Shown here piece after piece: positions 628-57,703 of a stretch of DNA of 64,000 nt. The translations under genes and the position numbers were made by a program. The stretch spans positions 1,581,961 through 1,645,960 of the forward strand of contig OZ244031.1 in the NCBI GenBank assembly GCA_965215045.1, read 5' to 3'. The notes below the pieces were generated by a model. It ran no database searches. It saw nothing but the letters and a program-made list of their open reading frames with translations, and was not told the origin of the DNA. This DNA is from Gammaproteobacteria bacterium. Lineage in GTDB: Bacteria; Pseudomonadota; Gammaproteobacteria; JABABF01. The first letter of the stretch is position 1, and each line of letters opens with the position of its first letter.

Positions 628-2616
628 ATGCACCTGTCCTGGCGTCTGCTCTGCGCCCTGTTACTTCTGGGTCCCGTTTTTCCCGCCGATGTCTTCGCCC
701 AGTATCCACCCCGTCCCTACCAGGTGACGGAGAAACGCGATCCCTGTCGCGACTACCAGGAGCAGAAGCAGCTGTTCTGGGGGGATACGCACGTGCACAC
801 GACTTTCTCCCTGGATGCCGGCATCCAGGATACCCGCAACCGGCCCGAAGATGCTTACCGTTATGCGCGGGGCGAGCGCCTGGGCCTGCAACCCTACGAT
901 GAACAGGGGCAACCGCTGCGTTTTTCGCAGTTGCGGGAGCCGTTGGACTTTAGCGTGATCAGCGATCACGCCGAGGCCCTGGGCATCGTCGGCGTTTGCA
1001 CCACGCCGGGGTACGAGGGCTATGACTCTTTTACCTGCAAGTCCTACAGGGATCGTCCCAGTCTCGCCTATTTCATGATGCTGCGCCTGCCGATCGGCAG
1101 CCGTTACCTGGCGAATCGTTACCCGTGGCTGGGTTTCCTGAGAAAACTGACGGACCGGGATGCGGGTCTGCCGTCCCTGTGCGGGGAGGGAGGCCGGGAT
1201 TGCCTGAAGATGGGCAGTGAGCGCTGGCAGCAGATCCAGGCGGCGGCGGAGGCGGCGTACGACCGCTCTTCCGCCTGCAACTTTACTTCTTTTGTCGGTT
1301 ACGAGTGGACCGGGGACACGGAGGTGAACCTGCACCGCAACGTGGTGTTCCGCAACCGCAATGTTCCGGCACACCCGGTCAGCTATGTCGATGTCGCCAC
1401 CCCCGAGGAGCTGTGGCAGACTTTCCAGCGCGACTGCCTGGATGCGGACAACGGCTGCGATGTGCTGGCCATCCCCCATAATTCCAACCTCAGTGACGGC
1501 CGGATGTTCCCGGACTGGAAGGGCGGGGCCGGGGATTACGGCCCGGAGCAGGCGCGCCTGCGCGCCCGGGTCGAGCCGGTATTTGAAATCATGCAGCACA
1601 AGGGAGATTCGGAATGCTGGTACGGAGAGGGCGTCCAAGATGAACTGTGCGCCTTTGAAAAACTGCCCTATAACCTGTTTGCCGGGAGATTTTTCTCCCG
1701 TTTCCAGGAGCCGACCGAGCCGGGGGATGGCTATGCGCGGGGCATCCTGGCCCAGGGCATGCGTTACTGGCGGGGCATGGGTATCGATCCCTACCTGATG
1801 GGGTTTATCGGCAGCAGCGACACGCACCTGGGCACGCCGGGGGCGGTGGAGGAGGCGGACCACCAGGGGCATGGCGGTGCCGGCCGGGTGGAATTCGGGG
1901 AATTGCCGCAGGGGCTGCCCGATGACCTGGAGTTCAACCCCGGCGGGCTGGCGGCGGTGTGGGCCGAGGAAAACACGCGCGATGCGTTGTTTTCCGCGAT
2001 GCAACGGCGCGAGACGTACGGCACCAGCGGGCCGCGCATCCGACTGCGCTTTTTTGGCGGTTGGAATTATGATCCGTACTTGTGCAACCGGGGAATGCGC
2101 GACATAGTGGGCCAGGGCTATGCGCGCGGTGCGCCGATGGGCGGTGTCCTGGAGGAGAAACCCGGCGGCCGGCTGGGCTTCGTGATCGATGCCTGGCGCG
2201 CCTCCCGGAGCGCGCGCCTGCAGCAGGTGCAAATCATCAAGGGCTGGGTTGACGGGCGGGGCAATACCCGCGAAAAAATCTACCTGGCGGCGGGCGACCC
2301 CGAGAATGGTGCCAGCGTGGACCCGGTGAGCTGCCAGACGCAGGGCAGCGGCTATGACCGCCTGTGCAAGGTGTGGCAGGACCCGGATTTCAAGCGCGGG
2401 CAACAGGCGTATTACTATGCGCGGGTGGTGGAGAACCCGAGTTGCCGCTGGAGTGCGCGCGTATGCAGTGCGCACCAGGTCGACTGCGAGCAGCCCGGGA
2501 CCATCCCCGAGGGGCTTGCGGGCTGCTGTGCGCCGGAACACCGGCCGGTGGTCCAGGAGCGGGCCTGGAGTTCGCCGATCTGGTATCGTCCCGCCGCCGC
2601 CCGGGCGCAGCCTTGA
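628..2616 (+). CDS. Secreted DUF3604-like protein (PHP-type metal-dependent hydrolase fold), paralog 1 of 4
   Basis: 662 aa with an N-terminal signal-like segment (LLCALLLLGPVFPADVFAQ). Shares motifs FWGDTHVHTTFS.D, DFSVISDHAE, IPHNSNLSDG, MQHKGDSECWYG, RETYGTSGPRIRLRFFGGW and a C-terminal Cys-rich CRWSARVC...VDC...GCCAPEHRPVVQERAWSSPIWY. Length and motifs fit DUF3604. Confidence 0.8.
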   Translation: MHLSWRLLCALLLLGPVFPADVFAQYPPRPYQVTEKRDPCRDYQEQKQLFWGDTHVHTTFSLDAGIQDTRNRPEDAYRYARGERLGLQPYDEQGQPLRFSQLREPLDFSVISDHAEALGIVGVCTTPGYEGYDSFTCKSYRDRPSLAYFMMLRLPIGSRYLANRYPWLGFLRKLTDRDAGLPSLCGEGGRDCLKMGSERWQQIQAAAEAAYDRSSACNFTSFVGYEWTGDTEVNLHRNVVFRNRNVPAHPVSYVDVATPEELWQTFQRDCLDADNGCDVLAIPHNSNLSDGRMFPDWKGGAGDYGPEQARLRARVEPVFEIMQHKGDSECWYGEGVQDELCAFEKLPYNLFAGRFFSRFQEPTEPGDGYARGILAQGMRYWRGMGIDPYLMGFIGSSDTHLGTPGAVEEADHQGHGGAGRVEFGELPQGLPDDLEFNPGGLAAVWAEENTRDALFSAMQRRETYGTSGPRIRLRFFGGWNYDPYLCNRGMRDIVGQGYARGAPMGGVLEEKPGGRLGFVIDAWRASRSARLQQVQIIKGWVDGRGNTREKIYLAAGDPENGASVDPVSCQTQGSGYDRLCKVWQDPDFKRGQQAYYYARVVENPSCRWSARVCSAHQVDCEQPGTIPEGLAGCCAPEHRPVVQERAWSSPIWYRPAAARAQP

Positions 2617-2633
2617 GAACCGCAGCGTATTGA

Positions 2634-4673
2634 ATGGGCGTGAGCGTCCATTGTCGTGCTGCGGTGTTCCGGCGTTATTGCCGGGGCCAGGGGGTACTGG
2701 TACTGCTGTTGGCAACCGGCACCTGGCTTCCCCTGCCGGTGGCGGCACAAGCGGCACCGGAGCGTCCCTACCGGGTCACCGAGGAGCGCGCCCCGTGCCG
2801 CGACTACCGTCCGCAAAAACAGCTGTTCTGGGGGGATACCCACGTGCACACGGCGTTCTCTGTCGATGCGGGCCTGCAGGACACCCGCAACCGGCCGGCA
2901 GATGCCTACCGCTATGCCCGGGGCGAGCGCCTGGGACTGCAACCGTACGATGAGCAGGGGCGCCCGCTGCGTTTTTCGCAGTTGCGGGAACCGCTGGATT
3001 TCACCGTCGTCAGCGACCATGCCGAAAATTTGGGCATGGTCGCCGTGTGCACGACACCGGGTTACAAGGGGTATGACTCCTTCACCTGTACCTCCTTCAG
3101 AAAACGACCGCGTCTGTCCTATTTTTTCAGTGCCGGCATGACGCTGGGCAGCCGCTACCTGGCCGAGCGTTACTCGTGGCTGGGTTTCCTGGGAAAACTG
3201 ACGGACCCGAACCGGCCACCGCCGGCCCTGTGCGGGGAGGACGGCCGGGACTGCCGGCAATTGCGCCGGGCCCGCTGGCGGCAGATCCAGGAAGCGGCGG
3301 AGGCGGCCTATGATCGCAGCCCCGCCTGCAGTTTCACTTCTTTTGTCGGTTACGAGTGGACCGGGAACGAGGCGGTGAACCTGCACCGCAACGTGATCTT
3401 CCGCAATCGCAATGTCACGGAGCGGCCGATCAGTTACATGGATGAGAGTACCCCGGAGAAGTTGTGGCAGGCCCTGCAAAGCGAGTGCCTGGAGGCGGGC
3501 AAGGGCTGTGACGTGCTGGCCATTCCGCATAACTCCAATCTCAGTGACGGCCAGATGTTCCGGCCCTGGACGGGCGGTGCCGGCGATTACAGCCCGGGGC
3601 AGGCGCGCCTGCGCGTGCGCATCGAACCGATGTTCGAGATCATGCAACACAAGGGCGATGCGGAATGCTGGTACGGGGTGGGAGTCCGGGATGAATTCTG
3701 CGCCTTTGAAAAGCTGCCCTACGATCGCTTCGTCGGCCGGTTTTTCCGCGGTCTGCGCGAGCATCCCGAACCCCGCGATGGCTATGCGCGGGACATCCTG
3801 GCCCAGGGCATGCGCTATTTTCGGGGCATCGGCGTCGATCCCTACCAGGTGGGTTTTATCGGCAGCAGCGATACGCACCTGGGCACGCCGGGGGCGGTGG
3901 AGGAGACCGGCCACCAGGGCCACGGCGGTGCCGGCAAGATGAGTTTTGGCGAAGTGCAGCCGGGTCTGCCGGATGACCTGGAGTACAACCCCGGCGGACT
4001 GGCGGCGGTGTGGGCGGAGGAGAATACGCGCGATTCGCTGTTTGCGGCACTGCGTCGGCGCGAGGCCTACGGCACCAGCGGGCCGCGCATCCGGCTGCGT
4101 TTTTTCGGCGGCTGGAACTATGACCCGCAGCTGTGCAGCCGTGAGCTGCGGGAACTGGTCGCCCAGGGCTATGCGCGGGGTGCGCCGATGGGCGGCGTCC
4201 TGGAGGCGGCAGCGGACGGTGCGCGCCCGGGTTTCGTGGTCGATGCCTGGCGCGCCGCCGGCGGGGAGGATGCACCGCTGCAGCAGCTGCAGATCATCAA
4301 GGGTTGGCTCGATGCCCGGGGCCGGGCGCAGGAAAAAATCTACACGGTGGCGGGCGATCCTGACAACGGGGCCGGCGTGGACCTGGCGACGTGTCGGAGA
4401 CGGGGCAGCGGCTATGACCGCCTGTGCCAGGTGTGGCAGGACCCCGATTTCGAGAGCGGGCAGCAGGCGTATTATTACGCGCGGGTGCTGCAGAACCCGG
4501 GCTGCCGCTGGAGTGCGCACATCTGCGCAGCGCATCAAGTTGACTGCAAACGGCCCCAGACCATCACCGAGGGCCTGGAGGGCTGCTGTGCACGGGAGCA
4601 CCGGCCGGTGATCCAGGAGCGGGCCTGGAGTTCGCCGATCTGGTATCGTCCCGCCGCCCGGGCCGCGCGCTGA
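2634..4673 (+). CDS. Secreted DUF3604-like protein, paralog 2
   Basis: 679 aa, same conserved blocks as paralog 1 (FWGDTHVHTAFSVD, DFTVVSDHAE, IPHNSNLSDG...). Signal-like N-terminus ends VAAQAA. Starts 18 nt after paralog 1. Confidence 0.8.
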   Translation: MGVSVHCRAAVFRRYCRGQGVLVLLLATGTWLPLPVAAQAAPERPYRVTEERAPCRDYRPQKQLFWGDTHVHTAFSVDAGLQDTRNRPADAYRYARGERLGLQPYDEQGRPLRFSQLREPLDFTVVSDHAENLGMVAVCTTPGYKGYDSFTCTSFRKRPRLSYFFSAGMTLGSRYLAERYSWLGFLGKLTDPNRPPPALCGEDGRDCRQLRRARWRQIQEAAEAAYDRSPACSFTSFVGYEWTGNEAVNLHRNVIFRNRNVTERPISYMDESTPEKLWQALQSECLEAGKGCDVLAIPHNSNLSDGQMFRPWTGGAGDYSPGQARLRVRIEPMFEIMQHKGDAECWYGVGVRDEFCAFEKLPYDRFVGRFFRGLREHPEPRDGYARDILAQGMRYFRGIGVDPYQVGFIGSSDTHLGTPGAVEETGHQGHGGAGKMSFGEVQPGLPDDLEYNPGGLAAVWAEENTRDSLFAALRRREAYGTSGPRIRLRFFGGWNYDPQLCSRELRELVAQGYARGAPMGGVLEAAADGARPGFVVDAWRAAGGEDAPLQQLQIIKGWLDARGRAQEKIYTVAGDPDNGAGVDLATCRRRGSGYDRLCQVWQDPDFESGQQAYYYARVLQNPGCRWSAHICAAHQVDCKRPQTITEGLEGCCAREHRPVIQERAWSSPIWYRPAARAAR

Positions 4674-4677
4674 GTCG

Positions 4678-6693
4678 ATGCGCCGGTCCCCGCAGCTCCT
4701 GCCGCAAGGGAGTGTCCTGGTACCGCTGTTGGCGGCCTGTGCCTGTGCCGTCCTGCCGGTTGCAGCGCAGTCACCGGAGCGGCCGTACGCGCTCACCGAG
4801 GCGCGCGAGCCCTGCCGCGATTACCGCCCGCAAAAACAGCTGTTCTGGGGCGATACCCACGTGCATACGGCTTTTTCCTTCGATGCCGGCATCTATGGAA
4901 CCCGCAACCGGCCGGAAGATGCCTACCGCTATGCCCGCGGCGAGCGCCTGGGATTGCAGCCCTACGATGCGCAGGGCCGGGCACTGCGTTTTTCGCAATT
5001 GCGGGAACCGCTGGATTTCACCGTGGTCAGCGACCATGCCGAAGGTCTGGGCATTGCGGGTGTTTGCGGCGTGCCGGGCTACGAGGGCTATGACTCCTTC
5101 ACCTGCACCTCCTACAGGGAACGGCCGCGTCTTGCGCGTTTCCTGATGTTGCAACTCCCGCTCATTCGCCGCCACCTGGCCGAGCGTTACTCGTGGCTGG
5201 GTTTTCTGAAAAGACCGGAGGTCCGGGTGCGAGAGCCGCCCGCCCTGTGCGGGGAGGGGGGCAGGGACTGCCTGCAGGGCGGCCGGGAAATCTGGCGGCA
5301 GATCCAGGAAGCGGCAGAGCGCGCCTACGACCGCACTTCCGCCTGCCGTTTCACTTCTTTTGTCGCTTATGAGTGGACCGGGGATACGCGGGTGAACCTG
5401 CACCGCAACGTGATCTTCCGCAACCGCGAGGTGCTGGCACGGCCGATCAGTTACCTGGATGCGCCTACCCCGGAGGAGTTGTGGCAGGGGCTCCAACGCG
5501 ATTGCCTGGATGCCGGCAACGGCTGTGACTTGTTGGCCATTCCCCACAATGCCAATCTCAGCGACGGCCAGATGTTCCGACCCTGGGAGGGCGATACAAG
5601 CGATGATGCCCTGGCCCGGGCGCAGCTGCGCGCCCGCATCGAACCGGTGTTGGAAATCATGCAGCGCAAGGGGGACTCGGAGTGCTGGTTCGGGGCGGGG
5701 GTAGAGGATGAATTCTGCGCCTTTGAGAAACTGCCCTACGATCGATTTGCCGGAAGAACCTTCCGCAGTCTCGGGGCAGCACCCGAACCCGGCGATGGCT
5801 ATGCGCGGGACATCCTGGCCCGGGGCATGCGCTATTTTCGGGGTCTCGGCGTCGACCCCTACCGGCTGGGTTTTATCGGCAGCACGGATACACACCTGGG
5901 CATTTCGGGGGCGGTGGAGGAGGGCGGCTACCAGGGGCATGGCGACCCCGGGAATACGATACTGGGAAAATTGCCGGCGGCGGGTCTGCCGGATGCCCTG
6001 GAGTACAACCCCGGGGGATTGGCGGCGGTGTGGGCGGAGGAGAATACGCGCGATTCGCTGTTTGCGGCACTGCGTCGGCGCGAGGCCTACGGCACCAGCG
6101 GGCCGCGCATCCGGCTGCGCTTTTTCGGCGGCTGGGACTATGATCCGCAGCTGTGCCAGCAAGGAGTGCAGCACCTGGTCGACCGGGGTTATGCGCAGGG
6201 TGTGCCGATGGGCGGTGTCCTGGAGCCGGCCATGGACGGTGCCCGCCCGGGTTTCGTGGTCGATGCCTGGCGGGCCGCCGGCGGGGAAAACGCACCGCTG
6301 CAGCAGCTGCAGATCATCAAGGGTTGGCTCGATACCCGGGGCCGGGCCCAAGAAAAAATCTACACCGTGGCGGGTGAGCCCCGAAACGGGGCCGGTGTGG
6401 ACCTGGCGACATGCCGGGGACGGGGCAGCGGCTATGACCGCCTGTGCCAGGTGTGGGAGGACCCCGATTTCGAGAGCGGCCAGCAGGCGTATTATTATGT
6501 GCGGGTGCTCCAGAACCCGAGCTGCCGCTGGAGTGCGCGCATCTGCAATGCGCACCGGGTCGACTGCCAGCGGCCCGGGACCATCACCGGGGGACTTGCG
6601 GGCTGCTGTGCACCGGAGCACCGGCCGGTGATCCAGGAGCGGGCCTGGAGTTCACCGATCTGGTATCGTCCCGTCGCCCGGGCACCACACTGA
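4678..6693 (+). CDS. Secreted DUF3604-like protein, paralog 3
   Basis: 671 aa, same blocks (FWGDTHVHTAFSFD, DFTVVSDHAE, IPHNANLSDG). Starts 5 nt after paralog 2. Confidence 0.8.
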   Translation: MRRSPQLLPQGSVLVPLLAACACAVLPVAAQSPERPYALTEAREPCRDYRPQKQLFWGDTHVHTAFSFDAGIYGTRNRPEDAYRYARGERLGLQPYDAQGRALRFSQLREPLDFTVVSDHAEGLGIAGVCGVPGYEGYDSFTCTSYRERPRLARFLMLQLPLIRRHLAERYSWLGFLKRPEVRVREPPALCGEGGRDCLQGGREIWRQIQEAAERAYDRTSACRFTSFVAYEWTGDTRVNLHRNVIFRNREVLARPISYLDAPTPEELWQGLQRDCLDAGNGCDLLAIPHNANLSDGQMFRPWEGDTSDDALARAQLRARIEPVLEIMQRKGDSECWFGAGVEDEFCAFEKLPYDRFAGRTFRSLGAAPEPGDGYARDILARGMRYFRGLGVDPYRLGFIGSTDTHLGISGAVEEGGYQGHGDPGNTILGKLPAAGLPDALEYNPGGLAAVWAEENTRDSLFAALRRREAYGTSGPRIRLRFFGGWDYDPQLCQQGVQHLVDRGYAQGVPMGGVLEPAMDGARPGFVVDAWRAAGGENAPLQQLQIIKGWLDTRGRAQEKIYTVAGEPRNGAGVDLATCRGRGSGYDRLCQVWEDPDFESGQQAYYYVRVLQNPSCRWSARICNAHRVDCQRPGTITGGLAGCCAPEHRPVIQERAWSSPIWYRPVARAPH

Positions 6694-6703
6694 GGATCAT
6701 GTA

Positions 6704-8725
6704 ATGATGAATCGACATTCGCATCCCCTGCCGCTGAGCGGTATCTCGGTACTGCTGCTGGGGGCGTTCGCCTGGGCCTCCCCGCCGCTTGCAGCACAGG
6801 CACCGGAGCGGCCGTACACGATCACCGAGGAGCGCGAGCCCTGCCGCGATTACCGTCCGGAAAAACAGGTGTTCTGGGGCGACACCCACGTGCACACCGC
6901 GTACTCTTTTGACGCCTCTATGTGGGACACGCGCAATGACCCGGACGACGCCTACCGCTTCGCCCGGGGCGAGCCGGCGGGCATCCTGCCGTATAGCGAA
7001 CAGGGCGAGGCACAGCGCTGGGTGCAATTGCCCCGGCCGCTGGATTTTGCCATGGTCTCCGACCATGCCGAGCACCTGGGGCGCATCGATATCTGCGCGC
7101 GCAAAGACCTGCTGGGGTACTATTCGATCAACTGCAGGATCTTTCGCGGCCGCCCGCAACTGAGCTTTTTCACCAACCTGGCGATGCCGCTGATTCTGAA
7201 GGAACTCACGCTGCAGAACGATAATTGGCGCTTCCTGAAAAAGTTGTTTCGCGCCGAACAACCGCCGCTGTTCTGCGGCCCTGACAACCGGCGCTGTTAC
7301 GAAGCCGCGCGGCCGGTCTGGAAGCGCATCCAGGCGGCGGCGGAGCGCGCTTACGATCGCAGCACCGCCTGCCGTTTTACTTCTTTTGTCGGCTATGAAT
7401 GGACCGCCTACACCGGCGGCAATATTCATCGCAACGTGGTGTTCCGCAATGAGCGGGTGCCGGCGGACCCGATCAGTGCCAACGAGGCCCCCGAGGCTCC
7501 CGGGCTGTGGCGGGCCTTGGATCGCGAGTGCATCCAGGGGGTTCCCGGTTGCGATGTGCTGGTCATCCCGCACAACAGTAACGTGAGCCGGGGGCTGATG
7601 TTCCCCGACCCGGGCGGGGAGCGCACCGCACCGCACAACCCGCGCACCGCGGTGCTGAGTGCCCGTTTTGATCGCCTGTTCGAGATCATGCAGCACAAGG
7701 GCGATTCCGAGTGCTGGTACGGACAGGGGATCGCCGATGAACTGTGCGCCTTTGAGAAGCTGAGTTACGACGCCCTGGGTGCCCAGATCAGCCCGCGCTT
7801 TGCCATCCCCAGTCATCCCAGCGATGGTTTCCTGCGCCCCGTGCTGTCGTCGGGCCTGGTCTACCAGCGGCAATTCGGCGTCAATCCCTACCGCCTGGGC
7901 GTGATCGCGAGCACGGACAATCACCTGGGCACGCCGGGTTCGGTCGAGGAATACAATTTTGTCGGGCACACGGGCATCTCTGCCAACAGGAATTTCCAGA
8001 ACATGAGTGCCGGTCTGCGCCTGCCGGATTCGCCGAACTTCAATCCCGGCGGGCTGGCGGCGGTGTGGGCGGAAGAGAATACGCGCGACTCGCTGTTTTC
8101 TGCGATGCGCCGCCGCGAGACGTACGGCACCAGCGGCCCGCGGCTCGAGGTGCGCTTTTTCGGCGGTTGGAACTATCCCGCAGACTTGTGTCGCAACCCC
8201 GACTGGGTGAAGGAGGCGTATGCGGGCGGGGTGCCGATGGGCGGTGTCCTGGCCGCGGATGCCGCACTCGGAACCGCCGCTGCACCGCGCTTTTTGCTGT
8301 ATGCGCGTCGCGACCCGGGTGTCGCCGGGCATCCGGGTCTGCCGCTGCAATACATGCAGCTTATCAAGGGCTGGGTAGATGAGCGGGGCACCGCACAGGA
8401 GAAGGTCTACGACGTCGCCGGCAACCCCGACAGCGAGGCCGGGGTGGACAGTGACTGTCGGCCGCACGGTGCGGGATACCAGCGGCTGTGCCAGGTGTGG
8501 AGCGACCCGGACTTTGATGCGGGGCGCGATGCCTGGTACTACGCGCGCGTGTTGCAGAATCCGAGCTGCCGCTGGAGTGCTCGCTGGTGCAGTGCGCAGG
8601 GGGTGAACTGCGAGGATCCGGCATCGGTTCCCGCGGGCATGGAAGCCTGTTGTGCAGCGGATCATCGCCGGGTGATCCGGGAGCGGGCCTGGACTTCGCC
8701 GATCTGGTACCAGGCGCAGCCGTGA
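6704..8725 (+). CDS. Secreted DUF3604-like protein, paralog 4 (most divergent)
   Basis: 673 aa with the same core motifs (FWGDTHVHTAYSFD, DFAMVSDHAE, IPHNSNVSRG, MQHKGDSECWYG, C-terminal CCAADHRRVIRERAWTSPIWY). Signal-like N-terminus. Confidence 0.8.
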   Translation: MMNRHSHPLPLSGISVLLLGAFAWASPPLAAQAPERPYTITEEREPCRDYRPEKQVFWGDTHVHTAYSFDASMWDTRNDPDDAYRFARGEPAGILPYSEQGEAQRWVQLPRPLDFAMVSDHAEHLGRIDICARKDLLGYYSINCRIFRGRPQLSFFTNLAMPLILKELTLQNDNWRFLKKLFRAEQPPLFCGPDNRRCYEAARPVWKRIQAAAERAYDRSTACRFTSFVGYEWTAYTGGNIHRNVVFRNERVPADPISANEAPEAPGLWRALDRECIQGVPGCDVLVIPHNSNVSRGLMFPDPGGERTAPHNPRTAVLSARFDRLFEIMQHKGDSECWYGQGIADELCAFEKLSYDALGAQISPRFAIPSHPSDGFLRPVLSSGLVYQRQFGVNPYRLGVIASTDNHLGTPGSVEEYNFVGHTGISANRNFQNMSAGLRLPDSPNFNPGGLAAVWAEENTRDSLFSAMRRRETYGTSGPRLEVRFFGGWNYPADLCRNPDWVKEAYAGGVPMGGVLAADAALGTAAAPRFLLYARRDPGVAGHPGLPLQYMQLIKGWVDERGTAQEKVYDVAGNPDSEAGVDSDCRPHGAGYQRLCQVWSDPDFDAGRDAWYYARVLQNPSCRWSARWCSAQGVNCEDPASVPAGMEACCAADHRRVIRERAWTSPIWYQAQP

Positions 8726-10734: not shown

Positions 10735-12543
10735 TTACCGCCGGGTCTGCTTCCACAGGATATCGATGGTTTTTGGATCGTAGGGCGGCAGCATCTTGAA
10801 CAGCTTGGCCGGGTTGGTAAAGCCCTGGCGCAGCATCGCGCGCTGGTGACTGAAGGTGCGAAAACCGTCGAAGCCGTGGTAATTGCCCATGCCGCTGTCC
10901 CCGATACCCCCGAAAGGCAGGTCGCTGCAGCTGGCGTGCATCATCACGTCGTTAATGGTCACCCCCCCGGAACAGGTGCTGTCCAGGATGCGCTCCTCCT
11001 CCTTGCGATCCTCGCCAAAATAATACAGTGCCAGGGGGCGTGGCCGGGCATTGATAAAGTCGATGACTTCATCGATATCATCGTAGTGGCGCAGTACCAT
11101 CACCGGTCCGAACAGCTCGTGTTGCATCACCAGTGCCTCATCGACGGGCTCCAGGACCAGGTGCAGGGGCAGCCTGTGGGAGCCGTCATCGGCGATCGCT
11201 TTCTGCAGTTCTTCGACGCGCGCGCCGCGTTTCCTGGCATCCTCGAGCCATTGGTTCAGGCGTTGTAAATGCTTTTCGTTGACGATCGAAGTGTAATCGG
11301 GATTGCCGGAGATCAGGGGATACAGGTTGCCGAAGACCAGCTTGGCGTAATGCAGGAACTCTTCCAGACTGTTGTTAAATTCCTCGGAGTTGAAAGTATC
11401 GCGCGGCAGGAACACGTAGTCCGGGGAGATGCAGGCCTGCCCGGAATTCATCATCTTGCCGCAGATGATTCTCTCCACCGCCTGCTGCAGGTTCGCCGAC
11501 TTGCCGATAATCACCGGCGATTTGCCTCCCAGTTCCAGGGTGACCGGGGTCAGGTTGGGTGCCGCTGCACTCAATACCTTGCGGCCGATTTCCGTGCCGC
11601 CGGTAAAGATCAGGTGATCAAATGGCAGGCTGCTGAAGATCGCCCCGACCTCGGGGCCGCCCGTGCAGACCGCGATCTCGGTGGGTTCAAAATAACGCGG
11701 AAACAATTCCGCCATCAGTTCCGCGGTGGCCGGGTTGACTTCGGAGGGTTTGATCATCGCCCGGTTGCCGGCACCCAGGATATTCGACAGGGGATTGAAA
11801 ATCATATTGACCGGGAAGTTCCACGGTGCCATGATGCCGACCACTCCCTTGGGTTCGTAGCGTACACAAGCCCGGGCGCCCAGGAGCAGCGACACCAAAC
11901 CCGGGTTGCGCCGTTCCGGCCGCACCCAGCGCCGCAGGTGTCTCTTGGTGTGCTTGAGCTGGGTCAGCGAATCGAGCACGTCGCTCATCAGGCTGAGTGG
12001 TCGCGCCCGGCCGCTGAAATCCGCATCCAGCGCCTCGATAATGAGTTTCCGATGATTGACCAGCAGGGTGATGCAACGGTCGATCCGGTCGAGCCTGACG
12101 CCCAGGTGCACCTTGCCCTCGGCGAGAAAAGCCCGACGCTGCTGTTTTAGGAGTTCCTCCATGAATGCGCGTGTCGCCGGGGGTCTGGAGGCGTCCCGGG
12201 GAGGTGCTCCCGGAACGGTCACCGCCGCTGCAGAAGCTTGCGCTTGCGGCTGCTCCCCAAGCGTTTCCATGCCCTGGAAGGCGGCCTGTTCTGCGGCCGG
12301 AGCCGGGGCAGCGGGTGCCGGGGCAGCGGGTGCCGGCGTCACTTGTATTTCCGGCGTCTCGGTTGCCACCGCCTTGGCCCGGGTGCGACTGCTGGCCGTG
12401 GATTTGGCGGCCGTTTTTTTGCGTGTGCCGGTGGTGGAGCGGCGCCGGGTGGCGGTCTTGGGTTTGTTCGCGGTTTTCTTGGCGGTGCTGGATGACTTGG
12501 CAGCGGGTTTCCGTTTTTTTGTGCCCGAGGCTTCAGCGTTCAT
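10735..12543 (-). CDS. Aldehyde dehydrogenase (coniferyl-aldehyde-DH-like ALDH family) with about 127-aa N-terminal Lys/Ala/Pro/Thr-rich histone-H1-like extension
   Basis: 602 aa. The residue 128-602 core has ALDH motifs (GVVGIMAPWNFP, ELGGKSPVII, cysteine region GQACISPDY). The N-terminus is low complexity (KKRKPAAKSSSTAKKTANKPKTATRRR...PAPAAPAPAAPAPAAE). Confidence 0.8.
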   Translation of the reverse strand: MNAEASGTKKRKPAAKSSSTAKKTANKPKTATRRRSTTGTRKKTAAKSTASSRTRAKAVATETPEIQVTPAPAAPAPAAPAPAAEQAAFQGMETLGEQPQAQASAAAVTVPGAPPRDASRPPATRAFMEELLKQQRRAFLAEGKVHLGVRLDRIDRCITLLVNHRKLIIEALDADFSGRARPLSLMSDVLDSLTQLKHTKRHLRRWVRPERRNPGLVSLLLGARACVRYEPKGVVGIMAPWNFPVNMIFNPLSNILGAGNRAMIKPSEVNPATAELMAELFPRYFEPTEIAVCTGGPEVGAIFSSLPFDHLIFTGGTEIGRKVLSAAAPNLTPVTLELGGKSPVIIGKSANLQQAVERIICGKMMNSGQACISPDYVFLPRDTFNSEEFNNSLEEFLHYAKLVFGNLYPLISGNPDYTSIVNEKHLQRLNQWLEDARKRGARVEELQKAIADDGSHRLPLHLVLEPVDEALVMQHELFGPVMVLRHYDDIDEVIDFINARPRPLALYYFGEDRKEEERILDSTCSGGVTINDVMMHASCSDLPFGGIGDSGMGNYHGFDGFRTFSHQRAMLRQGFTNPAKLFKMLPPYDPKTIDILWKQTRR

Positions 12544-12602
12544 GACAATTCTCCAAAAAACATGAGGTCATGGGGGGGCAAAAGTATAGCCTGTTCCCGG
12601 TC

Positions 12603-14231
12603 TCAGTGCGGTGCCGGGGAATCCAGCATCATCCTCGCGGCGCGTTCTGCGATCATGATGGCCGCGGCATGGGTGTTGCCGCTTAGAATCCGCGGCAGAA
12701 CCGATGTGTCGGCAACCCGCAAGCCCTGGAGCCCGCGCACCCGCAGCCGGCTGTCGACCACGGCCTCCGGGTCTTCTCCCATGCGGCAGGTGCCCACAGG
12801 ATGGTACACGGAGTTTGCCTCCCGGCGCACGAATTCCAGCGTCTCCTCCGCGGTTTTGCAATCCATGCCCGCCAGCCGGGTCTGTTCATCGCGCCACGGG
12901 CGGAAGGCCGGGGCGGCGAATATGTCACGCACCCGGCGATAAGCGGCGACGATCCTCTGCCGGTCTTCCGGGTGTTGCAGGTAATTGGCGATGATGCGCG
13001 GTGCTTGGGTGGCGTCCCCGGAGTGGATATGCACGGAACCGCGGCTCTGCGGACAGAGATTGCACACCGTGGCGGTGACGCCCGGGCACAACTTCATGTT
13101 GCCGTTTTCGTAGCGTGCGGTGGCGGGGGTAAAGTGTATCTGCGCATCGGGGCGGTCCAGGTCCTCCCGGGTTTTGAAAAAGGCACCGACTTCGGAGGCG
13201 GGGTGCGTGAGCAGGCCCTTGCGATGGAGGAGAAAATTCAGCAGGTTGCGCGCAAAAGCGCCGGGTCGCGTCTCCTCGTACAGGGTGTTGATCCCCTGCA
13301 GTCCCTGGTACACATTGATGGTCAGGTGATCCTGCAGGTTTTCCCCGACCTGGGGGCGATGCAGCAGCGGGCGGATGCCGGTGTTCGAAAGCTGCTTGCG
13401 ATCGCCGATACCGGATAATTCCAGCAGCTGCGGCGAGCCGATGCTGCCGGCACAGAGCACGATTTCCCGCCGCGCCCGGGCGGTGTGTCGCCGCTCCCCG
13501 TCCCGCTCCTGTGCACGGTATTGCACGCCGATGGCGGTCTCGTCCCGGAACAGGATTTTTTCCGCCAGGGCCAGGGGCCGGATGCAGAGGTTCGGGCGCC
13601 GGCGCACCGGCTTCAGGTAGGCCGCAGCGCAGCTGTGACGCAAGCCGTTGCGGAGGTTCAACTGGTAATAACCGATGCCCTCGTTATCCCCGGTATTGAA
13701 ATCACTGCTGAACGGGATGCCCACCTCCTGCCCGGCGTCGATGAATACCTCGCCCACCGGGTAGAGGTTGATCGGGTTGCTCACCCACAGCGGGCCGCCG
13801 ACGCCGTGGAATTCATCCTCCCCGTTGACATTGTTCTCGGAGAACCGGAACCATGGCAACACATCCCGCCACGACCAGCCCCGGCAGCCGGCCGCCTCCC
13901 AGTCATCGTAGTCCAGCCGATGGCCGCGGATATAGACCATGCCGTTAATGGAACTGCTGCCACCCAGCACCTTGCCGCGCGGAAAATCGATGCGCCGGCC
14001 GTGCATGTGCTCCTCTTCTTCGGTCTGGAAACACCAGTTGAGCGTCGTGTCCTGCATCATGCGGGTGAAACCGCCCGGGATGTGGATATTGGGATTGCGG
14101 TCCCGGCCGCCGGCCTCCAGCAGCAGGACCCGGTAACTCGCCTCCCGGCTCAGGCGGTTGGCGAGCACGCAGCCCGCCGAGCCCGCCCCGATAACGATGT
14201 AATCGTATTCTTCTGTGCCATTCCCGGGCAT
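12603..14231 (-). CDS. GMC-family oxidoreductase (choline dehydrogenase BetA-like)
   Basis: Start moved to the internal Met (MPGNGTEEYDYIVIGAGSAGCVLANRLS, Rossmann GxGxxG). The C-terminal GMC motifs match. The ORF-track N-terminal extension lacks homology. Confidence 0.85.
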   Translation of the reverse strand: MPGNGTEEYDYIVIGAGSAGCVLANRLSREASYRVLLLEAGGRDRNPNIHIPGGFTRMMQDTTLNWCFQTEEEEHMHGRRIDFPRGKVLGGSSSINGMVYIRGHRLDYDDWEAAGCRGWSWRDVLPWFRFSENNVNGEDEFHGVGGPLWVSNPINLYPVGEVFIDAGQEVGIPFSSDFNTGDNEGIGYYQLNLRNGLRHSCAAAYLKPVRRRPNLCIRPLALAEKILFRDETAIGVQYRAQERDGERRHTARARREIVLCAGSIGSPQLLELSGIGDRKQLSNTGIRPLLHRPQVGENLQDHLTINVYQGLQGINTLYEETRPGAFARNLLNFLLHRKGLLTHPASEVGAFFKTREDLDRPDAQIHFTPATARYENGNMKLCPGVTATVCNLCPQSRGSVHIHSGDATQAPRIIANYLQHPEDRQRIVAAYRRVRDIFAAPAFRPWRDEQTRLAGMDCKTAEETLEFVRREANSVYHPVGTCRMGEDPEAVVDSRLRVRGLQGLRVADTSVLPRILSGNTHAAAIMIAERAARMMLDSPAPH

Positions 14232-14241
14232 CAACCCAATC

Positions 14242-14640
14242 TCAGGCAGAATCCCTGGGGGTAATTCGCAGTGCGATTGCGGTGAGGATGAAAGTGACCC
14301 ATTCGTAGATGAGCACTGACTGGATGTACGGGTTGTCAAAGGTGTGGTCCAGCCAGGCACCGAAGGTGCGCGTGATTGCCAGGGCACCGATCAGGACCAG
14401 CAGGATCCACAGGAAAGCGTGCCGCCAGCCGCTGATAAAAGCGGCGAGGATGAGCAGTACGCCCAGGGACAGTTGCACGCCCCCGTACATGGCCCGGATT
14501 TCGGTCAATGCCTGGGCCGTCACCCCGGGCAGTTCCAGGGTTGTGCTGACATACTCCGGGTTAAACAGGCACCACAGGCCGTAGCCGGCAAATAAAATCC
14601 CCGTGATCAACAGTACGATGCGCCCGAACATATCTTGCAT
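14242..14640 (-). CDS. Small integral membrane protein (DUF4345-like, 4 TM)
   Basis: 132 aa, hydrophobic. Sits directly upstream of the GMC gene on the same strand with a 10-nt spacer. Confidence 0.5.
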   Translation of the reverse strand: MQDMFGRIVLLITGILFAGYGLWCLFNPEYVSTTLELPGVTAQALTEIRAMYGGVQLSLGVLLILAAFISGWRHAFLWILLVLIGALAITRTFGAWLDHTFDNPYIQSVLIYEWVTFILTAIALRITPRDSA

Positions 14641-23282: not shown

Positions 23283-23648
23283 TTGAACATGCGGTCCGTG
23301 GTTCGTAGTTTTGTGTTGGGCGTCGCGCTGTTTTGCAGTGCGGTTTTTTCTCCGTCGGGCCTGGCCCAGGAGGCACCGGAGCAATATAAATCGCCCGCTG
23401 CCGCCGAGATGGCACTGGACCTGGTGCTGTTGCGCCCGCTGTTGCTGGGGGCCACGGTGGTCGGGTCGGGGCTGTTTGTCGCCGCCCTGCCTTTTACCCT
23501 GCCCAGCGGCAGCACCGGGGACGCCGCCCGGGAATTGGTGGCTGTGCCTTTTCACTCCACCTTCCTGCGCTGCCTGGGCTGCACCAGGGTGGACCTGGCG
23601 CGGCGGGAAGAACAGCGGCGGCAACAGCAGCAGCAACAGCAGGAATAA
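23283..23648 (+). CDS. Hypothetical small secreted/membrane protein with C-terminal poly-Gln tail
   Basis: 121 aa with a signal-like N-terminus, a second hydrophobic segment, and a C-terminal REEQRRQQQQQQQE. Confidence 0.35.
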   Translation: MNMRSVVRSFVLGVALFCSAVFSPSGLAQEAPEQYKSPAAAEMALDLVLLRPLLLGATVVGSGLFVAALPFTLPSGSTGDAARELVAVPFHSTFLRCLGCTRVDLARREEQRRQQQQQQQE

Positions 23649-57286: not shown

Positions 57287-57703
57287 ATGGCAGCAAAGAA
57301 AAAGACCGCTCGTAAACCAGCCAAAAGCAAGGCCCGGGCTCCGGCGCGCCGCAAAAAGGCTGCCGCCAAGCCAGTCTCGCCCGGTGCGCCGATCCGCAGC
57401 CGGCTGACCAAGTCTGGCATTGTCGGTGCCATTGCGGAGAGTCGCGACTTGAGACGCGCAGACGTGAGTGCCGTGCTCGAGGAGCTGGAGCTTTTGATCG
57501 GACGCAGCGTTCGTCGGGGCAGCGTGGGAGAATTCCAGCTGCCGGGCCTGATGAAGGTGGTTGCGGTGAAAGTCGCGGCGCGCAAGGCGCGTCCGGGGGT
57601 CAACCCGTTCACCGGCGAAAAAATCATGATCAAGGCGCGTCCGGCAAGCCGCAGTGCCCGCGTGCGGGTGCTGAAGAAGCTCAAAGAATACGCTTCCAGC
57701 TGA
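57287..57703 (+). CDS. HU-family nucleoid DNA-binding protein with N-terminal Lys/Ala-rich histone-H1-like tail
   Basis: N-terminus MAAKKKTARKPAKSKARAPARRKKAAAKP. C-terminal HU/IHF fold (GIVGAIAES...LEELELLIGRSVRRGSVGEFQLPGLMKVVAV...RPGVNPFTGEKIMIKARP). Confidence 0.75.
   Translation: MAAKKKTARKPAKSKARAPARRKKAAAKPVSPGAPIRSRLTKSGIVGAIAESRDLRRADVSAVLEELELLIGRSVRRGSVGEFQLPGLMKVVAVKVAARKARPGVNPFTGEKIMIKARPASRSARVRVLKKLKEYASS

Follow-up and report, generated by a model that had tools for sequence, protein, structure and literature searches.

An extended aldehyde dehydrogenase in a compact operon

The window, a stretch of 64,000 nucleotides of gammaproteobacterial DNA, contains on the minus strand at 10735-12543 the complete coding sequence of an extended class 3, coniferyl-aldehyde-dehydrogenase-like aldehyde dehydrogenase (ALDH) of 602 amino acids, identified from the list of open reading frames and by Pfam. 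Its catalytic core of the ALDH3 type, delimited by Pfam, alignment, structure search and AlphaFold, extends from M128 to the stop codon (10735-12162, minus strand), and the segment 12163-12543 corresponds exactly to codons 1-127. Pfam Aldedh (PF00171), covered from position 24 to position 459 of its 461, matched residues 121-568 with an E-value of 4e-73, and the first predicted helix spans residues 125-142, so the recognisable ALDH begins around MEELLK. An earlier note, made from the sequence alone, had placed the start of the ALDH near this motif and a low-complexity N-terminus of 127 residues ahead of it; both points were borne out, and the peptide quoted there was correct.

The closest solved relative was the proteobacterial steroid aldehyde dehydrogenase Sad (9nxl), which matched residues 123-590 with an E-value of 3e-133. 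The top solved relatives were all ALDH3 enzymes (Sad; human fatty aldehyde dehydrogenase, FALDH or ALDH3A2, 4qgk, E 2e-81; 1ad3 and 3sza, class 3), and the matches to ALDH1 and ALDH2 structures were more than 40 orders of magnitude weaker. By its sequence, the protein is a member of class 3 of the ALDH superfamily, and its catalytic core is homologous to those of Sad and ALDH3A2. In an alignment of 35 homologs, N242 (in WNFP), E337 (LELGGKSP) and C371 (GQACISPDY) were invariant; from the ALDH motifs, we take C371 to be the catalytic cysteine, E337 the general-base glutamate and N242 the oxyanion asparagine. As to a named substrate (coniferyl aldehyde, benzaldehyde, a steroid or a fatty aldehyde), all NCBIfam equivalogs matched far under their cutoffs (MdlD with 293 against 550). 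The ALDH3 family prefers hydrophobic aldehydes. [quoted passage not shown] With 476 residues it has no extension, unlike the ALDH of the window.

Upstream of the ALDH, ending 59 nt before its start, lies the gene of an AlkJ/choline-dehydrogenase-like GMC flavin oxidoreductase (12603-14231, minus strand; 542 amino acids from M53 of a long ORF), which was recognised by Pfam GMC_oxred_N and GMC_oxred_C and scored 584 bits against the NCBIfam choline dehydrogenase subfamily, where the cutoff is 605. It is preceded by the gene of a small hydrophobic, probably membrane, protein with a DUF4345 domain (14242-14640, minus strand; Pfam, 4.5e-13), located 10 nt upstream of the GMC start. The order GMC-ALDH was the same in the related loci L001 and L039-L044, with the end of DUF4345 and the start of GMC sharing 4 nt in L039, L041, L043 and L044. 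The conserved block comprises mdh, an aminotransferase, DUF4345, GMC, ALDH, HupE/UreJ, a rotamase and DUF3604. The GMC oxidoreductase is the upstream operon partner of the ALDH in a compact operon. An apparent DUF4345-GMC fusion in L042 (702 amino acids) was discounted as a probable frameshift, since the contig had 2.8x coverage and the junction consists of out-of-frame Arg-rich sequence.

Composition and start codon of the N-terminal extension

The extension adds about 115 residues to the normal N-terminus, and its initial part is strongly positively charged. The 127 residues had been described as one histone-H1-like extension, but only residues 8-58 are basic; residues 59-127 form a neutral to slightly acidic linker rich in Pro, Ala and Gln. 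The polycationic block of residues 8-58 (12370-12522, minus strand) was delimited by composition, shuffles, codon usage and AlphaFold pLDDT. Its 51 residues include 19 Lys and Arg, no Asp or Glu and no hydrophobic residue, which gives a net charge of +19 and a pI of 12 (K 24%, T 22%, A 20%, R 14%, S 14%, P 4%). It is followed by a Pro/Ala-rich linker, residues 59-85 (12289-12369, minus strand), with 37% Ala, 26% Pro and a net charge of -3. Here Tandem Repeats Finder detected a perfect tandem repeat at 12302-12336 with the 15-nt unit GCCGGGGCAGCGGGT in 2.3 copies of 100% identity, which encodes (PAPAA)n and translates in frame to PAPAAPAPAAPAPAA. The short DNA repeat reported before is thus real, but its unit is 15 nt and not the 19-mer quoted. 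A period that is a multiple of 3 is expected of a recent slippage expansion within coding DNA. The third part, defined by composition and AlphaFold, is a neutral Ala/Pro/Gln-rich spacer of residues 86-127 (12163-12288, minus strand) that runs into the helix 125-142. Its final 12 or so residues represent the ordinary short N-terminus of the family, because most homologs have 20 residues ahead of the QRxAF motif. AlphaFold gave pLDDT values below 40 and no secondary structure in the basic block, values below 50 for residues 1-105 and the earliest secondary structure at residue 125; the tail is predicted to be intrinsically disordered.

The basic block was randomised by 20,000 nucleotide shuffles. 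The observed 19 basic, 0 acidic, 0 hydrophobic and 1 Asn/Gln/His residues compare with shuffle means of 9.6, 3.7, 2.6 and 9.6, respectively. At least 19 basic residues occurred in 0.07% of the shuffles (p = 0.0007) and at most one Asn, Gln or His in 0.005% (p = 5e-5). The block is far more cationic than its nucleotide composition predicts, which suggests that the composition is under selection. In a six-frame scan of the 64 kb, Lys-rich 40-mers also rich in Ala, Pro, Thr or Ser appeared at only two places, both N-termini of real genes, the ALDH and an HU-like gene. Ala/Pro-rich tails are also present on L17 and L3 in the window.

Searches with the tail by itself returned no homolog at E-values up to 10 (1679 word-sharing candidates from 5.8 billion proteins) and no Pfam family at E-values up to 10, including HC2 and H1, which leaves the tail without a family assignment. 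The label histone-H1-like fits loosely, for charge and disorder, but the tail is rich in Thr, Ser and Arg, with 4% Pro, no Pfam H1 or HC2 match and a single KPAA motif at residues 12-15; the sole tandem repeat is that of the uncharged PAPAA linker. A Sec or Tat signal peptide and a transmembrane anchor were rejected, since residues 8-58 contain no hydrophobic residue and residues 1-127 contain only 10, which are not clustered.

No other start codon of the ORF precedes the ATG at 12543, which follows an in-frame TGA at 12568-12570 by 9 codons. The Shine-Dalgarno sequence GGAG, read from the sequence at 12551-12554 (minus strand), precedes the ATG 12543-12541 with a 7-nt spacer, which is an ideal distance. 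Further in-frame ATGs occur at codons 92 and 128. If translation began at one of these, 12163-12543 would be an untranslated leader or an intergenic spacer that is open by chance. We estimated from the base composition that at the local G+C 127 codons lack a stop with a chance of about 6%, and three antisense frames are also open, so the open frame by itself is weak evidence. The antisense ORFs 12056-12565, 12165-12545 and 12238-12495 were rejected as genes for want of codon-usage support. An internal start would also fit the lack of the extension in the nearest homologs, the recurrence of a Met equivalent to M128 in several clade members and the weak codon-usage support over the linker and spacer. 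Over the entire extension, the reading frame scored 0.08 bit per codon, whereas one alternative frame reached 0.21.

Several observations argue against an internal start. Inspection of the sequence before the internal ATGs at 12270 and 12162 revealed no Shine-Dalgarno-like site, including at the internal Met (around 12160), where the earlier note had proposed to look for one. With an internal start, the gap between GMC and ALDH would widen from 59 to 440 nt in an otherwise compact operon, compared with 13-92 nt in relatives. A protein starting at M128 would have 7 residues ahead of QRxAF, fewer than in all of 120 homologs (mode 20, minimum 12), and would be cut within the helix 125-142. The L039 ortholog has no ATG, GTG or TTG in codons 2-92 and hence no alternative start there. 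The amino acid composition of the basic block is highly non-random in this frame, and its synonymous codon usage is typical of the genome (0.36 bit per codon; the core has 0.40), the block being the only part of the extension to score well. A promoter scan found no promoter-like site on the coding strand within the extension. Terminator-like matches on the plus strand were dismissed as by-products of poly-A runs in Lys codons; they were no commoner than in shuffles.

The 127 N-terminal residues are thus very probably translated as part of the ALDH, as judged from the sequence, and an exclusive internal start is very improbable. Of the two readings offered before, a fused tail or a start at MEELLK, the former is favoured by the Shine-Dalgarno site, the orthologs, L039 and the QRxAF spacing. 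The evidence named beforehand as speaking against the fusion, orthologs without the extension together with an internal ribosome-binding site, was found in its first half, in the two nearest homologs, but not in its second. Isoforms with different localisation made from two starts occur in bacteria, and the ATGs at codons 92 and 128 could in principle yield a short soluble form beside a long tethered one. As neither has a ribosome-binding site and the ortholog P0005 lacks the internal start codon, this is just as improbable as an internal start alone.

Extensions and basic tails in relatives

The positional orthologs carry extensions of their own. Those with 14, 32, 50 and 72 extra residues each stand behind their own good ribosome-binding site; overall, the length varies from 14 to 114 extra residues with a patchy distribution on the tree. 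The two nearest homologs, 60-61% identical and with the same GMC-ALDH pair, have none, so a check on whether orthologs share the extension gave a divided answer. No closer relatives were found: the nearest proteins were 60-61% identical, and matches in genome contigs and metagenome contigs reached at most 55% and 52%, respectively. A tblastn extension to residue 33 in L001 was a low-complexity artefact, the ALDH there starting 13 nt past the GMC stop. The net charge of the orthologous tails ranges from -2 to +15, so a polycation is not a conserved requirement.

Two close pairs allowed substitutions to be counted. In one, the extension had 2 synonymous and 5 non-synonymous changes in 85 codons, against 15 and 2 in 470 codons of the core; in the other, 1 synonymous and 4 non-synonymous changes fell in 45 codons of the extension and 10 and 4, respectively, in the core. 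In both pairs, the extension changes at about the synonymous rate and without codon-position bias. The orthologous tails evolve nearly neutrally. In the pair P0005/P0121, the extension varies on either side of residues 19-58, whereas this segment, with its short basic stretch, is identical in both. BLASTP and shuffle tests detected no positional similarity among the orthologous tails above shuffles. A common ancestry of these tails was not accepted, since the MAFFT alignment was co-linear but BLASTP and the shuffles traced the signal to composition only.

Among more distant ALDH3-like proteins, of which there are roughly 35,000 homologs, P0368, from an AT-rich organism (37% identity, other neighbours), has a basic Lys/Asn/Ser-rich N-terminal tail of about 100 residues. 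The z-score of 4.4 between this tail and that of the window ALDH does not indicate homology but reflects a blockiness lost on shuffling. In the ALDH3-like protein P0292, the same N-terminal position is taken by a multi-span hydrophobic anchor, which was tested as a DUF4345 fusion and found to be unrelated to DUF4345.

The HU-like gene of the window (57287-57703, plus strand) codes for an HU/IHF-family protein with a basic N-terminal tail of 39 residues (net +15), in which MAAKKKTARKPAKSKARAPARRKKAAAKP stands ahead of the Bac_DNA_binding domain (PF00216, residues 40-134). The claim that this tail is very similar to that of the ALDH holds for composition but not for DNA or peptide sequence. A recent copy was rejected because blastn-short against the window gave only chance matches of at most 19 nt, and the peptide similarity of the two tails did not exceed that of shuffles. 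Tailed HU proteins are a widespread family of 130-187 amino acids, some with a Pfam HC2 match. Basic N-terminal tails were present in all eight homologs inspected (142-183 amino acids), and several among the 120 listed match PF07382. The HU-like protein thus resembles the ALDH in having, in the same genome, an N-terminal basic tail of similar charge density, but its tail extends a domain that already binds DNA, and its family is widespread and conserved across Cellvibrionales-like genomes. Long HU tails are present even in relatives with a tailless ALDH; P0131 from the L001 genome is one case.

A possible tether and the alternatives

Cationic tails have been characterised in other bacteria. 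AlgP and PhaF of Pseudomonas, also Gammaproteobacteria, resemble the ALDH in carrying a Lys/Ala-rich, disordered, strongly cationic appendage on an unrelated folded domain. The KPAA tail of AlgP binds DNA and localises to polyphosphate granules (PMC9239181) and that of PhaF binds RNA (PMC12818456); such tails are sequence-independent binders of DNA, RNA or polyphosphate granules that position their cargo (PMC9239181, PMC12818456). They are C-terminal, comprise dozens of KPAA repeats with net charges of +35 to +55 and sit on structural or regulatory proteins, whereas the ALDH tail is N-terminal, Thr/Ser/Arg-rich with one KPAA and 4% Pro, has no detectable homology to anything and sits on a catabolic enzyme. 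PhaM of Ralstonia eutropha has a basic low-complexity tail through which the PHB synthase and granule, a metabolic machine, are connected with the nucleoid (PMC3556143); it is the nearest precedent for anchoring metabolism spatially in this way. PhaM, however, is an activator and adaptor rather than an enzyme, its Lys-rich tail is C-terminal with PAKKA motifs, and storage-granule genes are absent near the ALDH.

Localisation modules are also found on ALDHs. FALDH carries a terminal one, a C-terminal membrane anchor, which is a hydrophobic helix and not a polycationic, N-terminal disordered region as in the window ALDH. The microcompartment enzymes PduP and EutE have an N-terminal encapsulation peptide and a poorly conserved linker and are similar in that a targeting add-on is joined N-terminally through a linker to an aldehyde dehydrogenase. 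Those enzymes are CoA-acylating ALDHs encoded in shell-gene operons, and their peptide is an amphipathic helix some 18 residues long. In the ALDH studied here no helix is predicted before residue 125, the head has no hydrophobic residues and the identified neighbours include no shell gene, and an encapsulation peptide was rejected. Nothing relevant was found in the literature on an ALDH with a Lys-rich tail, and the fusion of an ALDH to a basic tail seems to be undescribed.

We propose that the 127-residue N-terminus may be a disordered modular appendage in three parts. The polycationic head (residues 8-58, net +19) would hold the enzyme on a polyanion of the cell as an electrostatic, sequence-independent tether. 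The stiff Pro/Ala spacer that follows, about 27 residues long and grown at least partly through in-frame replication slippage, would let the catalytic dimer reach away from the bound surface, and a neutral spacer of about 40 residues would connect to the first helix of a normal, presumed dimeric ALDH3-type core. The enzyme would perform the second step of a two-gene module from alcohol to aldehyde to acid, after the GMC oxidoreductase. By analogy with the characterised tails, binding to the nucleoid or another polyanion may reasonably be inferred, and if the tail is translated, we lean slightly towards a tether of some kind. A translated, disordered tail that tethers the ALDH to a polyanion is the best explanation overall, and we regard the chances for and against it as balanced. 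Nucleic acid or polyphosphate (nucleoid DNA, ribosomal or messenger RNA, polyphosphate granules) is a tentative candidate for the partner; it is ranked above the membrane because the characterised bacterial Lys-rich disordered tails bind these polyanions.

Instead, the head might be a peripheral tether to the anionic (PG/cardiolipin) inner leaflet of the inner membrane, where GMC probably works, and place the ALDH beside GMC and DUF4345, where it would capture hydrophobic aldehydes at their site of production. AlkJ-type GMC enzymes are membrane-associated. They reduce ubiquinone (PMC5404194), and the ALDH3 relatives Sad (9nxl) and human FALDH (4qgk) act on hydrophobic aldehydes (PMC12410373). 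The conserved DUF4345-GMC-ALDH operon, with its 10-nt spacing and the 4-nt overlap in relatives, is in line with such a site, as is the anchor of P0292 exactly where the tail sits, although this anchor is not related to DUF4345. Known bacterial membrane-targeting sequences normally need hydrophobic or aromatic residues or an amphipathic helix, and the basic block has no such residue and no predicted amphipathic helix. The tails of orthologs from the same operon are close to neutral or acidic, and in E. coli it is the ribosomes, not the membranes, that attract unspecific polycations, as found for the in vivo ribosome binding of supercharged GFP (PMC5726854). We consider a membrane partner unlikely.

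A serious rival to any tether is that the extension is translated yet has no specific function. It would then be a tolerated low-complexity expansion, at most a generic solubility-enhancing 'entropic bristle', in a high-G+C genome that readily acquires such tails, and would have arisen when the start codon migrated and replication slipped. This agrees with the near-neutral substitution in the close pairs, the variable length and charge of the orthologous tails, their patchy occurrence and lack of mutual sequence similarity, the tailless nearest homologs, the perfect in-frame 15-nt repeat as a sign of ongoing slippage and the Ala/Pro-rich tails of L17 and L3 in the same window. The basic block itself fits less well, being far more cationic and far poorer in Asn/Gln/His, acidic and hydrophobic residues than expected from its nucleotide composition (p of about 1e-3 to 5e-5) with a genome-typical codon usage. 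Likewise, the stretch 19-58 is kept in P0005/P0121, and P0368 gained a basic N-terminal tail independently. A +19 tail should also be costly in a cytoplasm filled with ribosomes (PMC5726854), so its retention suggests a benefit. We rate the functionless expansion as possible, with about the same tentative standing as nucleic acid or polyphosphate as the partner.

If the tethering of the ALDH to a polyanion is real, it might go further: the enzyme might be anchored deliberately to the nucleoid, ribosomes or polyphosphate granules, or held in a condensate, so that oxidation is spatially organised, for example to clear genotoxic aldehydes beside the DNA or to partition the enzyme at division. We think this improbable. 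Such anchoring would have arisen more than once in ALDH3, in the clade of the window ALDH and in P0368, with a hydrophobic anchor in other members instead.

For annotation, the long upstream start is probably right for this ALDH and its orthologs, which gene callers or curators might trim to the internal Met. If the tail proves functionless, it would be a clean case of low-complexity N-termini that appear fast, grow by slippage and drift in high-G+C genomes. Lys-rich bacterial tails are so far known from HU, AlgP, PhaF and PhaM, and a true tether would add an ordinary catabolic enzyme to the nucleoid proteins and granule adaptors that carry them, with a simple and portable design of charge tag plus Pro/Ala spacer for enzyme placement in bacteria. 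Should deliberate anchoring also hold, the N-terminus of ALDH3 enzymes would be a general 'address label' site, and this ALDH a bacterial enzyme localised by an H1-like disordered region.

Architecture of the aldehyde dehydrogenase

The aldehyde dehydrogenase (ALDH) gene appeared in the ORF listing as a single ORF of 602 codons on the minus strand (10735-12543). Its codons 1-127 correspond exactly to the interval 12163-12543 and the Pfam aldehyde dehydrogenase domain covers the residues 121-568, confirming the earlier note that the ORF runs on into an N-terminal extension of 127 residues. The catalytic part is an ordinary ALDH3-type core. Among solved structures, the steroid aldehyde dehydrogenase Sad (9nxl) matched the residues 123-590 (E 3e-133), and class-3 enzymes, including the human fatty aldehyde dehydrogenase 4qgk, were the best relatives. 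Aligning 35 homologs showed no variation at Asn242, Glu337 and Cys371, the candidate catalytic residues.

In an AlphaFold2 model built with a 35-sequence alignment, the core was folded confidently, the residues 1-105 had a pLDDT <50 and the first secondary structure was a helix at 125-142. The ALDH carries a disordered N-terminal appendage in which a polycationic head is followed first by a Pro/Ala spacer and then by a neutral one. The head (residues 8-58; K 24%, T 22%, A 20%, R 14%, S 14%, P 4%) has 19 Lys and Arg but neither acidic nor hydrophobic residues, with a net charge of +19 and a pI of 12. The extension had been described as basic, which holds for the head but not for the Pro/Ala linker at 59-85 (A 37%, P 26%, net −3) or the neutral Ala/Pro/Gln spacer at 86-127. 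The short tandem DNA repeat seen earlier is real and lies in the linker as a perfect 15-nt unit in 2.3 copies (12302-12336), in frame and encoding PAPAAPAPAAPAPAA. A signal peptide, a membrane anchor and an amphipathic encapsulation helix were rejected, as no hydrophobic stretch is present to form one.

Translation start and gene neighbourhood

The translation of ALDH very probably starts at the upstream ATG 12543. This is the first start codon of the ORF, with an in-frame TGA 9 codons before it and a GGAG placed 7 nt upstream. The earlier note had left the choice between a fused basic tail and a start at the internal Met (MEELLK, ATG 12162), which would leave 12163-12543 outside the protein. 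At 65-70% G+C an open frame is weak evidence by itself, three antisense frames being open too, and the codon usage gives weak support across the linker and spacer. However, no SD-like sequence was found before the internal ATGs 12270 and 12162, and no promoter-like site on the coding strand inside the extension. The gene for the GMC oxidoreductase ends at 12603, 59 nt before the ALDH start; the internal start would widen this gap to 440 nt, compared with 13-92 nt in relatives (13 nt at locus L001). In 76 of 120 close homologs, the distance from the N-terminus to the conserved QRxAF motif is 20 residues, and in none is it below 12, whereas a start at M128 would leave 7 residues before it and clip helix 1. 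The composition was compared with frame-blind nucleotide shuffles of the basic block, which average 9.6 basic, 3.7 acidic, 2.6 hydrophobic and 9.6 Asn/Gln/His residues. The block itself contains 19, 0, 0 and 1 (p = 0.0007 for the basic excess, p = 5e-5 for the Asn/Gln/His deficit), and its choice among synonymous codons is typical of the genome (0.36 bit per codon versus 0.40 in the core). A six-frame scan of the whole 64-kb window found Lys-rich 40-mers of this kind at just two places, the N-termini of ALDH and of an HU-like gene. Together with the orthologs described below, this favours the fused tail, and an internal start is very unlikely; dual isoforms from the one gene are hardly to be expected either.

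The ALDH gene belongs to a conserved block of malate dehydrogenase, class-III aminotransferase, DUF4345, GMC oxidoreductase, ALDH, HupE/UreJ, rotamase and DUF3604, which was found again in the metagenome-assembled relatives L039-L044. Their ALDHs have 496, 514, 534 and 554 residues, with low-complexity N-terminal extensions adding 14, 32, 50 and 72 residues, and in every extended ortholog a good ribosome-binding site immediately precedes the ATG of the long form. Since the L039 gene has no ATG, GTG or TTG in codons 2-92, its ALDH cannot be complete without translating the extension. Positional orthologs have extensions of their own, but the two homologs closest in sequence (60-61% identity), which are encoded in the same GMC-ALDH pair, have an ordinary short N-terminus. 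No relative closer than 61% was present in the collections searched.

The GMC oxidoreductase ORF was called mechanically at 12603-14387 (minus) from a GTG overlapping DUF4345. Its true start is probably M53 (ATG at 14231), giving 542 residues, near the 544-558 of the orthologs. The DUF4345 gene for a small hydrophobic protein (14242-14640, minus; L039 2914-3315, L041 2860-3288) is always immediately upstream, 10 nt apart here and with a 4-nt overlap in relatives; this constant adjacency suggests a membrane partner of the flavoenzyme. A 702-aa 'GMC' call in L042 (2869-4977) resembles a DUF4345-GMC fusion, but is probably an assembly frameshift because the junction is out-of-frame and Arg-rich in a contig of 2.8x coverage. 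Four tandem DUF3604 paralogs (628-8725, plus; 662, 679, 671 and 673 aa, two confirmed by Pfam) have similar Cys-rich motifs at their C-termini, CCAxEHRPV(I/V)QERAWSSPIWY, the fourth copy being more diverged. This family also flanks the block in L039-L043.

Evolution of the tail and its likeness to histone H1

When the cores were placed in a neighbour-joining tree, extended forms were scattered inside the syntenic clade. The net charge of the tails is −2 in P0004, 0 in P0005 (including a +10 central patch), +7 in P0015 and +15 in the window ALDH, and they have only composition in common, with no positional similarity above shuffles. Two near-identical pairs of relatives differed in the tail by 2 synonymous and 5 non-synonymous changes per 85 codons and by 1 and 4 per 45, and in the 470 codons of the core by 15 and 2 and by 10 and 4. 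The tail changes show no codon-position bias. By these counts, the tail drifts about as fast as synonymous sites change, and its perfect 15-nt repeat indicates continuing growth by slippage. Such a pattern would be expected for a disordered region constrained, if at all, in composition only. It keeps alive the reading as tolerated junk, in which the extension is translated yet functionless; we regard this as possible but doubtful. Mildly in favour of function is the ALDH3-like protein P0368 (L045 846-2570; 37% identity) from an AT-rich organism in a JGI metagenome. With its basic Lys/Asn/Ser-rich N-tail of ~100 residues, it appears to be an independent case of such a fusion, and its gene has different neighbours, a PEP-utilising enzyme and a glutamate-synthase-like gene. 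Among 150 cluster representatives of the ALDH3-like family, 5, including P0368, had N-terminal add-ons of >45 residues. At the tail position, P0292 has a multi-span hydrophobic anchor (~100 residues) and P0332 an acidic Glu/Asp/Gln/Ser-rich tail (~60 residues).

The description of the extension as histone-H1-like applies only loosely. The bacterial H1-like tails of AlgP and PhaF are long KPAA-repeat arrays rich in Lys, Ala and Pro (PMC9239181, PMC12818456), whereas the ALDH tail is basic but contains KPAA just once, with 4% Pro and 36% Thr+Ser. No Pfam family matched it even at E = 10, and a search of 5.8 billion proteins gave no homolog at E up to 10. The tail falls outside the KPAA/H1-like family, although it may function in a similar way. 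The HU-like gene (57287-57703, plus), said to carry a very similar tail, does encode a basic tail of 39 residues (net +15) at the N-terminus, before its Bac_DNA_binding domain, but shares no DNA or peptide similarity with the ALDH tail. Tailed HU proteins form a widespread conserved family of Cellvibrionales-like Gammaproteobacteria (130-187 aa, some matching Pfam HC2). They occur in Halioglobus, Litorivivens, Microbulbifer, Dasania, Zhongshania and similar genera, vary greatly in tail length and are named 'viral histone-like protein' in UniRef. Relatives with an untailed ALDH keep long HU tails (P0131 in the L001 genome), and therefore the two tails are not coupled.

Proteins with a low-complexity tail at one terminus seem to be frequent in this genome. 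Ribosomal protein L17 (56465-57058, plus; 197 aa, Pfam domain to residue 116) has an Ala/Pro/Glu-rich C-terminal extension of 81 residues, and L3 (43414-44109, plus) ends in PPAPPAATEAAAAEAAAE. A 121-aa ORF (23283-23648, plus) without a Pfam match has coding-like GC3 and a hydrophobic, signal-like stretch at the N-terminus, and terminates in the poly-Gln run RREEQRRQQQQQQQE.

Putative role of the basic head

The head would tether the ALDH to a cellular polyanion by electrostatic attraction, irrespective of sequence, and the spacer would give the tethered enzyme reach. Nucleic acid or polyphosphate is ranked as the first candidate partner, because KPAA tails bind DNA, RNA and polyP granules (PMC9239181, PMC12818456), PhaM connects PHB granules with the nucleoid (PMC3556143) and supercharged GFP binds ribosomes in vivo (PMC5726854). 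The anionic inner membrane is ranked second. A specific tether to the inner membrane would fit an operon that opens with the hydrophobic DUF4345 protein and contains an AlkJ-type GMC enzyme; enzymes of this type reduce ubiquinone (PMC5404194). It would also fit the handling of hydrophobic aldehydes by ALDH3 enzymes and the anchor of P0292 at exactly the tail position. The head, however, has no hydrophobic residue at all, and we consider this option unlikely.

No description of an ALDH with such a tail was found in literature searches, and to our knowledge none has been published. In conclusion, the tailed ALDH joins parts that are all of known kinds, with a tail that evolves almost neutrally and has a putative function.
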